This document shows, one piece after another, positions 36,842-40,864 of a stretch of DNA of 47,768 nucleotides; position 1 is the first letter of the stretch, and every line of letters starts with the position of its first letter. The notes below the pieces were generated by a model that did no database searches, was not told where the DNA came from, and worked only from the letters and a program-made list of their open reading frames with translations. A program made the position numbers and the translations under genes. Location: the sequence record SRR20825010_6613. The stretch is one strand, 5' to 3'.

Positions 36842-37066
36842 CTAGATAGACCTAAGATACAATTGCTCCACTTTATCTCTCGCCCAAGGCGTTTTACGCA
36901 AAAAAGTAAGGCTCGATTTGATGGATGGATCATGGGTAAAACAACGAATATTAATTCTATCGCCTAGTTCTTCCCAACCATATTTTTCCACCAATACGGC
37001 AAGGATATCGGCCAGTTTTATTCCGTGGAGGGGATTATTCGGTTGGGCTTCTTTTGGGTTGGTCAT
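36842..37066 (-). CDS. DUF2132 (VF530) family putative DNA-binding protein
   Basis: NPLHGIKL...YGWEEL...[19 protein letters not shown]; likely start 37066. Confidence 0.9.
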
Positions 37067-37228
37067 AGTTATGGCTCTTATTTCTTTCTTTCCCTGAGGC
37101 ACGAAGGGTCTAGTCTGATTAGCTCCTTGGTTTCCATTCAGGATGAAAAGCATTGTGCAATAAAGTGCTTTACATGCTAAAATTGAATAAACAAAAAATA
37201 GCCTCGACATGAATGCCTAGGCCTTTAT

Positions 37229-38374
37229 CTAAATTTCAGAATCTCTATAGAAACTACTGATGTTACCGATAATTTGATCGTAGATTCGATCTACAAAACC
37301 GATGAATAAAGTTTGAGGTGGAGGCGGAGGTAATTCTTTACCTTTGCTCATTTCTATTTCATCGCGGTTCAGCGCCCTAGAATCTCCGTTAAACGAGGCC
37401 CATTCGTGTACCCAAACATCTTTGCTTGGCAACTTACGATTGGTCAAAATTCGGTTAGTATACGCATCTCGTATTTCGAAATTCATGACCCCTTGTGACG
37501 AAAGTGTTTTCCGGTTTACAGTCAATTGGGCTTTTACAGTATTGTAAACATCGTGCTTCACGCCTTTGTCGTCAGTAAACTGCCCAACCACTACACTATC
37601 GCGTTTTATTTCTTTAGTATTCGACTCAATCAAAGTTTGACCCAGTACAAAATCATCAAACTGCATCGATACGATTTGGTCGGGTTGCAAATTAATTTGC
37701 TCGGCTTCATCAACAGTGAAAAACTGAATGAATCTGCCTTCACTGAACCTGTCCAAATACTCGATAATTTGGTTTTCGAAGTATTCGTTAGTCAACTCTA
37801 AGCTGCGAGAATGAACTGGAATAGGTTCGATTAAAACTCGAACAGTGCCCATGTTTCTTGCGTCAGTCAACAAACTGTCAATGTTGGGCACGTTTCTATC
37901 AAAGTTGAGTGCAAAATTGAAATGCTTAAAAGCCCTTCTTCCGCCTTCAACAGTATTGGTCGCCAAAGCACTATTGCCCAGTTCTACTTGATAATCTGCC
38001 GCTTTTCTAGCGGCATCACTTTCTTCAGTGATATAAGATTTAGGCATTACCAGTGATAGGCAAGCTGGGCATCGCTGAATTTGACGATAGTAACTGTTCA
38101 GCTGCTGGTACTGGTAATAAGTCGCTTCCCATTTATTTGGATCATTATTTACAGCCAGCATCCGGATGTAATCCATATGATAGTTGGTAGCCAAACGGTA
38201 ACCCTCAATCAATACATCTTGTGACTTCTTATTGTCTGGGTTCGATTGTAAACGATTGATGGCACGGTCTAAAGCCGTTTCGTAATTACCTTTTTCAAGT
38301 GCATTCTTCCCTGTAGCACAGCTTACGATAGTCAGCACCATAAGCGCCAAAAGTGAGTGTAGAAAATTTTTCAT
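37229..38374 (-). CDS. Hypothetical lipoprotein with TPR-like N-terminus
   Basis: Lipobox IVSC; helical repeats then a beta-rich region. Confidence 0.75.
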   Translation of the reverse strand: MKNFLHSLLALMVLTIVSCATGKNALEKGNYETALDRAINRLQSNPDNKKSQDVLIEGYRLATNYHMDYIRMLAVNNDPNKWEATYYQYQQLNSYYRQIQRCPACLSLVMPKSYITEESDAARKAADYQVELGNSALATNTVEGGRRAFKHFNFALNFDRNVPNIDSLLTDARNMGTVRVLIEPIPVHSRSLELTNEYFENQIIEYLDRFSEGRFIQFFTVDEAEQINLQPDQIVSMQFDDFVLGQTLIESNTKEIKRDSVVVGQFTDDKGVKHDVYNTVKAQLTVNRKTLSSQGVMNFEIRDAYTNRILTNRKLPSKDVWVHEWASFNGDSRALNRDEIEMSKGKELPPPPPQTLFIGFVDRIYDQIIGNISSFYRDSEI

Positions 38375-38424: not shown

Positions 38425-39171
38425 TTAGCGTTTATTCTCCTCATCTAGTTCAATGATCTTAGATTTCATCATTTCATAAACCTGAGCTTTCAGGGCCGGA
38501 AGGTCTTTTTGAGTCATATTTTGGGTTGAAATTGGAGGAAGAAAATAATTATGAATGAGTCCTGGCCTCAAGCCCAATTGACCCTTAGGCATCAGCCTTT
38601 TCGCATTGTAAATAACCAAAGGCATAATGGCAGTACCCGTATCAATGGCTAATCTGAAGGGTCCATTATAGAAGGGAAGCAGTGGTTCATCTGTATTGTT
38701 TCGTGTACCCTCTGGTGCTACTATAATGGATAGGCCTCGATTTAAGTTCTTTATCAATTTCTCCACACTCCTCTTTCTACTTTCTTCGCTGGTTCGGTCT
38801 ACCCAAACGGCAAAGCCACTGGTAATAAATCCGAAGATTGGGATTTTAGCTAGTTCCTTTTTTCCCAAACCTTTTAAAGAAACAGGAATGGCTCTTGGAA
38901 TGGCTGGTGCGTCCAAAAAGGAAGTGTGATTAATGGTGAAAATATAGGGCTCCCCACGCTTAATCAACTTTCGGTTATGTGTTTTAAAATGGATAAAAGA
39001 AAACACAGAAAATAAGAAAGCCCAAACACGAGCAAAAAAATAACTGAAGTTGTCCAGTTTATCATTTATCAATTTGGGGATTACTATAAAAGGAGACAGG
39101 GCAATCATGATGGCTACAAACCAAATGGCGCACCAAACGGTGAACAGTATTTGAATCCCTTTTTTCAGCAT
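38425..39171 (-). CDS. plsC: 1-acyl-sn-glycerol-3-phosphate acyltransferase family
   Basis: NHTSFLD, PEGTR, N-terminal TM. Confidence 0.85.
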   Translation of the reverse strand: MLKKGIQILFTVWCAIWFVAIMIALSPFIVIPKLINDKLDNFSYFFARVWAFLFSVFSFIHFKTHNRKLIKRGEPYIFTINHTSFLDAPAIPRAIPVSLKGLGKKELAKIPIFGFITSGFAVWVDRTSEESRKRSVEKLIKNLNRGLSIIVAPEGTRNNTDEPLLPFYNGPFRLAIDTGTAIMPLVIYNAKRLMPKGQLGLRPGLIHNYFLPPISTQNMTQKDLPALKAQVYEMMKSKIIELDEENKR

Positions 39172-39236
39172 AAAATCTTTTCAGAAGAATTAGCTAAAAT
39201 AGTTTTTTTATGTGGAATGCGTCATTAGATTTGAGT

Positions 39237-39353
39237 GGAAATTTAATGAACATTGACCATGGTTATTCATCCAAACCATGACTCAATTTAAAGAAAAGGA
39301 TGAACTTCACTCTTTACTTGCAGCCCACACCCTCACAGGTTTGGGCTTTTTTT
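39237..39353 (+). ncRNA. Candidate structured RNA (sRNA or attenuated leader)
   Basis: TAGATTTG -7 element at 39226-39233; two hairpins with complementary loops; terminator at 39322-39353. Confidence 0.5.
39322..39353 (+). terminator. Intrinsic terminator with no + strand CDS directly upstream
   Basis: AGCCCA-C-ACC...GGT-T-TGGGCT followed by T6. Confidence 0.75.
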
Positions 39354-39387
39354 GTGGATTAGTTTAACTTGAGGCAAATCTTGATTT

Positions 39388-40278
39388 ATGAAATTCGGAA
39401 GCGTTGAAAACCCAGAGAATATTGATTTTACGTTGCCGCAAGACCAGCCAGCTACGGCCAAGGTTTTAGGGAAATCAAAGGCTAAGGATAAACCCAAGAT
39501 TTACGTGGGCTGTGCCAAATGGAACAAAACCGATTTAAAGGGCTTTTATCCAAAAGGCACCAAGGACGAGCTGACTTACTATGCTACGCAATTCAATAGT
39601 ATTGAACTGAACGCCACTTTTTACAATTACAGCGCAGAACAGTTTGAAAACTGGCATGGAAAAACGCCTGCCGATTTTAAGTTCTTTCCTAAAATCAATC
39701 AAATGATTAGCCATAGAAAGCGATTGAATGATGCGGATCGCTACACAGAAGACTTCGTGAATGCCTTATCAGGCTTGGGAGAAAAGATGGAGCAGACCTT
39801 TCTACAATTACACGATAACTTTGGACCCAAAAACTGGGATAGATTGGAACAGTTTATAGTAAATTTTCCCAAAGGAATTCCCTTGGCAATAGAGGTAAGG
39901 CATACCGATTGGCTTAATGACCCTGAAATGGCTGACCGATTTTATGCGCTTTTAGAAGAAAACAATGTGACCAATATTATCACCGATACTGCTGGTCGAA
40001 GAGATTTACTTCACATGCGTTTGACTACACCCAAAGCATTTATCCGATACGTAGGTGCTAACCATGAAAGCGATTATGCGCGCTTAGATGATTGGTTTGA
40101 TCGAATCAAAAACTGGATTGAAGTGGGAGGATTGGAAGATATTTACTTCTTCGTTCATCAAAACCTTGAGAAGGCCTCGCCTTTGCTTTCTGCTTACTTT
40201 ATTAAGCGACTGAATAACGAACTTGGCTACAGTCTACATGTGCCTGAACAGCAAGGCGGGCAGACCAATATGTTTTAG
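39388..40278 (+). CDS. DUF72 (YecE-like) protein
   Basis: YVGCAKW, FNSIELNATFY, FKFFPK, ISH, AIEVRH..W. Confidence 0.9.
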   Translation: MKFGSVENPENIDFTLPQDQPATAKVLGKSKAKDKPKIYVGCAKWNKTDLKGFYPKGTKDELTYYATQFNSIELNATFYNYSAEQFENWHGKTPADFKFFPKINQMISHRKRLNDADRYTEDFVNALSGLGEKMEQTFLQLHDNFGPKNWDRLEQFIVNFPKGIPLAIEVRHTDWLNDPEMADRFYALLEENNVTNIITDTAGRRDLLHMRLTTPKAFIRYVGANHESDYARLDDWFDRIKNWIEVGGLEDIYFFVHQNLEKASPLLSAYFIKRLNNELGYSLHVPEQQGGQTNMF

Positions 40279-40309: not shown

Positions 40310-40777
40310 CTACCAGTACTCGAAAATTCTAGATATTTTCCCATTTTTGAATTCGAAAAGCGTCATTTGTAACTCGCTTCCAACAACACCATTGTCGCTC
40401 TTTTCCACAAACCTTTTTTGAACAACGACCGCATTAAGTCCAACGATTTTGTTCTCAATCTTCATGTCTACCACGGTTCCGTCATAACCTCCATTTTTCT
40501 GATTTTTCACATAGCCATCGTATAAAACCTTTCGCGTATAAGTACCTCCATATTTAGGATGCACATAGGCGAAATCATCAGTAAAGAGTTCAAATACACG
40601 ATCTATGTCAGCCATAATAGAGTTGGCCTGAAAAATCTTAAGGTTTAAATCGTAGTAAGATTTGACCACCGTATTTAAGGAGTCTTTATGACTCTGGGTG
40701 GCCTCTTGCCCGTGGGCAGTAAAAGAGAGTAGGAGCAAAAAACAAAAATAGATAGCACTTGATTGTCTTCTCATCAT
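40310..40777 (-). CDS. Secreted NTF2/SnoaL-like protein
   Basis: Signal peptide; ELFTDDFAYVHP, FEFKNGKISRIFEYW. Confidence 0.8.
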   Translation of the reverse strand: MMRRQSSAIYFCFLLLLSFTAHGQEATQSHKDSLNTVVKSYYDLNLKIFQANSIMADIDRVFELFTDDFAYVHPKYGGTYTRKVLYDGYVKNQKNGGYDGTVVDMKIENKIVGLNAVVVQKRFVEKSDNGVVGSELQMTLFEFKNGKISRIFEYW

Positions 40778-40864
40778 CAAAAAATAGGTTGAATGTTGAA
40801 TACAATTGAACACGTAGTTAACGACCAAAAGGTTAACTAAATTTTTAAAGTTCAACTACAATTT

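Follow-up and report, generated by a model that had tools for sequence, protein, structure and literature searches.

We identified a small RNA (sRNA) gene on the plus strand of SRR20825010_6613, a stretch of DNA of 47,768 nucleotides (nt) that was analyzed at its full length and is called the window here. The gene lies inside a 216-nt spacer (39172-39387) between a divergent gene for a PlsC-like acyltransferase and a gene for a DUF72 protein. It is present once in every genome searched of its genus, which we infer to be Roseivirga, it has a secondary structure backed by covariation, and it is independent of the DUF72 gene. Its most conserved part, a segment of 16 nt, is common to the family, taken here as Cyclobacteriaceae in the sense of GTDB. 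We propose that this is a stand-alone sRNA gene whose product most likely acts in trans by base pairing through the 16-mer and which carries a pseudoknot module specific to the genus, a reading to which we assign a probability of about 0.6. The RNA is a new sRNA family of GibS-like type and falls into none of the described families that could be tested.

The gene is highly conserved within the genus. When 61 related genomes were searched by BLAST with the spacer, matches came from 25 of the 36 that belong to the genus and from none of the 25 that belong to other genera, and a covariance model built from 25 sequences gave exactly one match in each of the 36. Distant members of the genus share 70 to 75% DNA identity over the RNA region and 51 to 60% protein identity over the adjacent acyltransferase; hence, the spacer is better conserved than its coding neighbor. 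Two of the 36 genomes (L128/L305 and L304) contain a short form without the hairpin-pseudoknot module, in which the leader, GAAAUUUAAU(G)AAA(A)C, continues directly into the 16-mer. The module of ~55 nt is bounded by a repeated AUGAAAC. It was either gained within the genus or else lost twice, and from the comparison of long and short forms the pseudoknot domain appears to be a genus-specific addition to an older core.

The 16-mer (39307-39322) is absent from an earlier reading of the window made from its letters alone (the sequence-only reading). Its core is invariant within the genus, and the RNA consensus is UMACUCUUURCUUGCA. Exact copies are present in 85 of 401 genomes of the family (87 matches in 25 of 132 genera, mostly one per genome), compared with four matches for the reversed 16-mer. 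In a sample of 280 genomes drawn from 21 further families of the order, a single genome has an exact copy and the reversed control gave three matches. Two genomes, G322 (C21 and C43) and G415 (C14 and C58), have two exact copies on separate contigs, which may represent a duplicated RNA gene. A scan of all species genomes gave 58 loci with a hairpin of -11 kcal/mol or stronger directly after the 16-mer among the 120 loci listed. The hairpin-bearing ones among the first 80 listed are of Cytophagales type, together with three contigs of metagenome-assembled genomes (MAGs) labelled Limnohabitans, and the rest of these 80 are scattered chance matches within genes of other phyla, mostly without a hairpin and without the promoter motif TAnnTTTG. 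The members outside the genus include Algoriphagus, Belliella, Aquiflexum, Shivajiella, Anditalea, Ekhidna, Marinoscillum and "Cyclobacteriaceae bacterium." On the three MAG contigs (L075, L099 and L114, "uncultured Limnohabitans sp."), the RNA unit is of Algoriphagus type and is accompanied by the start of the acyltransferase gene; these contigs are probably mis-binned.

Outside the genus, the segment TAACTCTTTRCTTGCA runs directly into a terminator hairpin followed by a run of T. Accordingly short is the whole unit, an RNA of ~55 to 65 nt made of an A/U-rich leader, the 16-mer and the terminator, of which we collected 71 distinct forms; these were chosen by the 16-mer and a hairpin of -11 kcal/mol or stronger and are therefore not independent with respect to the terminator. 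Covariance model R1, which matches the window at 39234-39355 with 108.4 bits, gave six weak matches in 149 genomes outside the genus, sharing the 16-mer and the terminator only. A sample independent of the motif was drawn from 29 other genera by way of the acyltransferase ortholog, and the unit adjoins the ortholog in 15 of them. In these 15 synteny-derived units the 16-mer has zero to two changes, and leader and terminator vary freely, with terminator energies from -14.9 to -19.3 kcal/mol. Seven of the 16-mers are exact and three read TCACTC at their start, with the A-to-C change that the window also has; of the others, three have one inserted C and three have one or two substitutions.

In the set of 71 distinct short forms, 54 have an exact TAnnTTTG that ends 15 to 22 nt upstream of the 16-mer, and 66 have one if the motif is relaxed. 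The unit thus appears to combine a promoter of its own at a fixed distance with a Rho-independent terminator, in a layout like that which defines high-confidence intergenic sRNAs in Bacteroides thetaiotaomicron, and it keeps both irrespective of the flanking genes. In structure prediction the mean unpaired probability of the 16-mer is 0.82 in the 71 short forms and 0.65 in the long forms, where it rises up to 0.79 with the strands of the pseudoknot engaged. Hence, the 16-mer is predicted to be both conserved and accessible, as expected for the seed of an sRNA.

For the structure we aligned 49 sequences (45 distinct rows) on the covariance model, comprising the window, 24 genus loci found by BLAST, 3 contigs of assembled genomes, 11 metagenome loci and 10 loci taken by coordinates. 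A metagenome scan had returned 28 loci, of which 16 were RNAs of the present type and five of these were dropped as duplicates of other rows. The alignment omits the split contig L006/L026 and the short form L305, whose sequence is identical to that of L128, and it includes the short form L304 with gaps at hairpin 1 and the pseudoknot. Over the 45 distinct sequences, 92.9% of the cells of all 23 modelled pairs are paired, compared with 68.8% in shuffles, and the covariation score is 0.674 compared with 0.204 in shuffled alignments (0 of 500 as high) and at most 0.115 in controls with slid partners. Hairpin 1 (P1) has two-sided changes in nine of nine modelled pairs, with 89.6% of cells paired, and the terminator in eight of nine, with 92.3% of cells paired. 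RNAalifold agrees on P1, whose conserved core joins 39258-39264 with 39274-39280; the outer ATTGA/TCAAT strands pair only in the window's clade. Read from the opposite strand, the many G-U pairs in the stems would turn into A-C mismatches, and hence the RNA is that of the plus strand. On this comparative evidence, we regard the RNA gene and its secondary structure as well supported.

The loop of P1 can make five core pairs with GGAUG in 44 of 44 distinct long forms. One of these pairs, C39271 with G39299 in the window, is C-G in 41 sequences and U-A in 3 (L016, L022 and L157), and the relatives L206 and L211 retain C-G. The sequence-only reading had all its coordinates and sequences right, including the -7 box TAGATTTG, hairpin 1, the exact complementarity of TTCATCC and GGATGAA, an upstream ATGAA, a possible hairpin 2 and the terminator. 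Its hairpin 1 is real, its loop pairing is conserved, and its proposal of a stand-alone RNA of ~115 nt with its own -7 box and terminator gains support from the homologs. Two of its structural suggestions did not withstand the comparison. Hairpin 2 (39289-39316) is paired in 68.9% of cells across the genus, equal to shuffles (67.9%), without covariation, and is a potential pairing in the window sequence only. With hairpin 2 lacking support, the loop contact would be not a kissing loop but an H-type pseudoknot with a single-stranded 3' segment, and by the usual rules for loop lengths in H-type folds such a pseudoknot is sterically plausible across the A-rich linker. The AUGAA at 39246-39250, suggested as a competing partner of the loop, can make four pairs with it in most sequences; with 82.7% of cells paired it stays below the shuffle mean of 85.8%, and it shows no double change. 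The parts of the RNA gene and its two neighbors are listed in Table 1.

Table 1. Positions of the RNA gene, its parts and the adjacent genes in the window
Feature	Position	Strand	Remarks
PlsC-like acyltransferase gene (context only)	38425-39171	minus	PF01553, E 5.6e-24
Conserved block of the presumed shared divergent promoter region, CTAAAATAGTTTTTTTATGT	39195-39214	unassigned	near-invariant in the 25-sequence genus alignment
Presumed -7 promoter box of the small RNA, TAGATTTG	39226-39233	plus	TAnnTTTG type
Inferred small RNA transcript, ~116 nt	39238-39353	plus	match of covariance model R1
A/U-rich single-stranded 5' leader, GAAAUUUAAUGAAC	39238-39251	plus	common to the same-genus short forms (L304, L128)
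Hairpin P1 (hairpin 1), loop ATTCATCCA at 39265-39273	39252-39287	plus	covariation, RNAalifold
Pseudoknot 5' strand, UUCAUCC in the P1 loop	39266-39272	plus	partner 39298-39304
A-rich linker from P1 to the pseudoknot 3' strand	39288-39297	plus	length differs by 1-4 nt among clades
Pseudoknot 3' strand, GGAUGAA	39298-39304	plus	duplex energy -7.7 kcal/mol
Single-stranded 16-mer, presumed seed, TCACTCTTTACTTGCA	39307-39322	plus	family consensus TAACTCTTTRCTTGCA
Intrinsic terminator: stem-loop 39323-39346, then seven U 39347-39353	39323-39353	plus	
DUF72 gene, downstream neighbor in the window	39388-40278 (ATG 39388)	plus	PF01904, E 1e-49

Known RNA families do not account for this element. A cmscan of the whole window against Rfam 15 gave no family at the gathering score, a search with 13 homologous loci of other species was negative at E <= 0.01, and a permissive scan of the region 39100-39450 had as its best match VrrA with 21 bits, compared with a gathering score of 50 (E 0.22), in an alignment that rests on the generic terminator. 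The sequence-only reading, which could not place the RNA in a family, was right in this respect. In the literature on Roseivirga, Cytophagales, Algoriphagus and Bacteroidetes sRNAs, searched also for the motif as text with supplements excluded, we found nothing on this RNA, only work that concerns Bacteroides or is general or unrelated.

How would the RNA work? We hypothesize that transcription begins ~5 nt past a -7 box of the Bacteroidota type, a start set from the position of the box, and halts in the U-run of the intrinsic terminator, whose stem has eight pairs and one C/U mismatch, to give an RNA of ~116 nt. The ancient core would consist of the short A/U-rich leader, the near-invariant single-stranded 16-mer and the terminator, and the 16-mer would be the seed that pairs with messenger RNAs (mRNAs) in trans, like that of the GibS-type intergenic sRNAs of Bacteroides. 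The A/G alternation within the 16-mer would preserve pairing with U, which fits base pairing. In the genus, the ~55-nt module would be placed between leader and seed, where UCAUCC of the hairpin loop would pair with GGAUGA, immediately 5' of the seed. Presumably, the pseudoknot module protects or stabilizes the 5' part, prevents GGAUGA from pairing elsewhere and leaves the seed open. Upstream of the -7 box of the small RNA, the T-rich block at 39195-39214 contains, read on the minus strand from 39202 to 39195, the sequence TATTTTAG, which matches TAnnTTTG at 7 of 8 positions ~24 nt before the ATG of the acyltransferase gene. Judged by the consensus given in PMC7366714, the block probably has a promoter role. 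A scan for sigma-70 promoters returned 0 sites; the sigma-70 model is uninformative for Bacteroidota.

The invariance of UCAUCC and GGAUGA, next to a P1 that covaries freely, may point to a function that depends on the sequence itself and not on structure alone. The genus module could, in a variant of our proposal, be a compact sensor that gates exposure of the seed by formation and melting of the pseudoknot, which would make the RNA a riboswitch-like gated sRNA acting in trans; such a gate might respond to a ligand, to temperature or to a ribosome that reads the short frame running from the AUG to its end in the loop. We consider such a sensor improbable. The short forms in 2 of the 36 genus genomes are built-in controls for this idea.

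Several observations weigh against the proposal of a structured sRNA acting in trans. Folded as a single sequence, the RNA is not significantly stable (minimum free energy -27.4 kcal/mol, z = -1.05, with 30 of 200 shuffles at least as stable), and its structure appears above chance only through the comparison of homologs. The double change in the pseudoknot concerns one pair in three related sequences and is probably a single event, and the remaining four core pairs are invariant and hence uninformative. This one compensatory event in the alignment is suggestive and not decisive, and we think it quite likely that the pseudoknot is real. A simple scan for terminators missed the one on the plus strand, and in some lineages a gene on the same strand starts very near to this terminator (the DUF72 gene 34 nt past its end in the window, a racemase gene after ~15 to 17 nt in L262 and L034), so read-through is possible. 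Two metatranscriptome runs gave only low-depth contigs of relatives, unable to reveal a short RNA; these span 39068-39235 and 39068-39303, both including the start of the acyltransferase gene, with a separate piece at 39343-39380. Moreover, no target was found, which is weak evidence as the energy-model scan did not cover whole genomes. With G-U pairs and at most one mismatch allowed, five genus genomes yielded 148 anti-seed matches, a count that takes in their 5 RNA genes, compared with 99 for the reversed control, an excess that is modest and not interpretable.

Of nine close anti-seed matches that we inspected, none coincides with a start codon. Seven fall within open frames of unrelated genes, at codons of the S-K-E-L type, and the other two are orthologs of each other, located antisense to a gene. 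A site in G033, a perfect complement over 13 nt in a lipoprotein-like open reading frame (ORF), was considered and rejected; it is retained only in G026 and has decayed in 28 other orthologs. Within the window, the sole match to the anti-seed is the RNA gene itself. When paired with the start regions of the acyltransferase, DUF72 and racemase genes, the seed gives duplexes that do not surpass those of controls, and the leaders of the genes for ribosomal protein S1, which follow the unit in other genera, have no conserved site complementary to the seed. A strong mean for the acyltransferase duplexes (-15.0) is an artefact, because the region upstream of the acyltransferase gene overlaps the RNA gene in the short forms.

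The genes around the unit were compared at 58 loci that had flanks of 1.5 kb; 24 of these belong to the genus and 34 to other genera. The acyltransferase gene is the divergent upstream neighbor in 40 of the 58 (by tblastn, in 21 of the 24 genus loci), and the link is lost in 18. In the Ekhidna-type loci the unit follows a gene with PALP and CBS domains on the same strand. Downstream, the neighbor is ribosomal protein S1 in 14 loci, an Asp/Glu racemase in 8, DUF72 in 7, all of them in this genus, and a beta-propeller protein in 4; the downstream gene is convergent in 16 loci, 12 of them among the 24 of the genus, and the remainder have other genes. The DUF72 gene itself decays in places. In L003 it was found by tblastn as two pieces split at residue ~174, in L005 only the last 31 residues are left, and L020 has fragments; the RNA gene is intact in all three. 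As the neighbors vary and DUF72 decays beside an intact unit, the block of promoter, seed and terminator moves and persists as a unit and is not a leader of DUF72. A further observation concerns the Asp/Glu racemase (murI-like), which is found downstream on the same strand in several unrelated genera (L259, L262, L280, L034, L061-L065, L016 and L022).

These data bear on the possibility, raised by the sequence-only reading next to that of an sRNA, that the RNA is a cis-acting leader or attenuator, similar to a riboswitch, in which conditional termination controls the downstream gene, DUF72 in the window. The distances from the terminator to the DUF72 gene, with no clear promoter in between, and to the racemase start in L262 and L034 would suit such a leader, as would the succession of pseudoknot and terminator, which is the layout of several small riboswitches. 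However, the gene linkage is inconstant: DUF72 follows in only 7 of the 24 genus loci and 0 of the 34 loci of other genera, so the homologs do not always precede it, remnants of it stand beside an intact RNA in L005 and L020, the downstream gene is convergent in 16 of the 58 loci, and the downstream genes belong to unrelated families. In addition, the ~30 nt that precede the terminator in the short forms are too few to accommodate an aptamer, and the 16-mer is fixed while the terminator stems vary freely, which makes a conserved anti-terminator pairing between the two impossible. Hairpin 2 has no covariation, and Rfam yields no riboswitch. The sRNA half of the alternative therefore stands as a stand-alone unit, and the attenuator half, control of DUF72 included, is very improbable. 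Even further from what the alignment shows would be a tiny peptide translated from the conserved AUG at 39247 (MNIDHGYSSKP in the window). Of 44 distinct long forms, 41 have the ATG, and 31 of these place TCATYC in frame 0, but the ORFs range from 3 to 28 codons, five having 4 codons or fewer, the frame of the loop splits 31/9/1, and three sequences lack the ATG. The paired double substitutions in P1 fit RNA structure and not codons, and the AUG is absent in other genera, all of which makes a coding function scarcely credible.

The conservation of the 16-mer and the positions of its neighbors allow two other explanations. The pyrimidine-rich 16-mer could be the recognition site of a protein, for example ribosomal protein S1 or another single-strand binder, and the RNA a decoy or sponge. 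All 16 positions are conserved, which is more than most seeds need, no conserved complementary target was found, and the S1 gene lies downstream on the same strand in 14 of the 34 non-Roseivirga loci. This linkage is missing in the genus, the RNA has one copy of the motif whereas known sponges have many sites, and the A/G variation at one position would keep pairing with U; we consider a protein-binding RNA unlikely. Alternatively, the RNA gene might act locally on the divergent acyltransferase gene, by competition between promoters or as an antisense RNA to a long 5' untranslated region. The acyltransferase gene is divergent not only in most of the 58 loci but also in 15 of the 29 genera sampled without the motif, and in the short forms only ~13 to 25 nt separate its ATG from the -7 box of the RNA, so its promoter must overlap the RNA gene. 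On the other hand, the Ekhidna-type and several other loci keep the same 16-mer elsewhere, after the PALP and CBS gene, and in the genus a separate conserved -7-like box is present 24 nt before the acyltransferase ATG. At the genus loci listed, duplexes between the seed and the acyltransferase start have energies of -7 to -10 kcal/mol, within those of controls (-9.0 to -10.5, averages over 36 loci). We hold local action to be improbable as well, and favor pairing of the 16-mer with mRNAs in trans.

The sRNA proposed here resembles known systems to different degrees. In Bacteroides thetaiotaomicron, high-confidence intergenic sRNAs are defined by a transcription start site and a terminator, and GibS acts through a conserved single-stranded 5' seed, as described in PMC7366714. 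To go by the same paper, the present RNA shares with GibS-type sRNAs an intergenic position in Bacteroidota, a TAnnTTTG -7 box of the sigma-ABfr type, a low G+C content, a largely single-stranded conserved seed upstream of a Rho-independent terminator and a phylum without Hfq or ProQ. Compared by description, it differs in belonging to another order and family, in a 16-mer that spans the whole family and in the probable 5' pseudoknot added in the genus. RydC of enterobacteria is an Hfq-dependent sRNA in which a pseudoknot exposes a short single-stranded seed and which controls a membrane-lipid gene. Set against RydC by description, the present RNA would likewise have a pseudoknot beside an exposed seed, and its gene usually adjoins a lipid acyltransferase gene; however, the seed of RydC is 5' of the pseudoknot and the presumed seed here is 3' of it, adjoining the terminator. 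In the preQ1-II, SAM-II and fluoride aptamers, bases of a hairpin loop reach over an A-rich linker to pair with a segment on the 3' side, and an intrinsic terminator follows. The present RNA would have the same arrangement of loop, 3' segment and terminator, but unlike these small pseudoknot riboswitches it fails every Rfam model and has no constant downstream gene, and its module is dispensable in 2 of 36 genus genomes and in all other genera. Finally, MicF and ompC are another case of an sRNA gene divergent from a conserved envelope-related neighbor across many genera; here, the acyltransferase linkage is lost in 18 of 58 loci and is positional only.

Our current picture of sRNA biology in Bacteroidota rests nearly entirely on gut Bacteroides. 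An RNA that is present as a single copy in 36 of 36 genomes of a genus, with a near-unchanged 16-mer in many genera of environmental Cytophagales, is a candidate core regulator in a group without a described sRNA. The minimal and the pseudoknot-bearing forms together make a natural experiment on a structured 5' module in bacteria without Hfq and ProQ. The usual location of the gene next to one for a lipid acyltransferase raises the possibility that the RNA takes part in envelope homeostasis.

Two observations lie apart from the RNA gene. Elsewhere in the window, the ORFs at 37229-38374 and 40310-40855, both on the minus strand, had no match in Pfam, and a 122-amino-acid ORF at 36842-37210 on the minus strand encodes a VF530 DNA-binding domain (PF09905, E 1.7e-34). 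The leaders of the S1 genes may contain a structured element of their own. Rfam gave no match at E <= 0.01 on four of these loci, and in the last ~70 nt before the ATG a hairpin loop with the sequence ..AUGACUCU.. is complementary to a stretch ~10 to 15 nt before the AUG (L033, L036-L039, L041, L042, L045, L046, L048, L050-L052 and L056). The two sides covary between genera, as GACUCU/AGAGUC, GACCCU/AGGGUC and GAUCCU/AGGAUU, which makes this feature a candidate pseudoknot in the rpsA leader.

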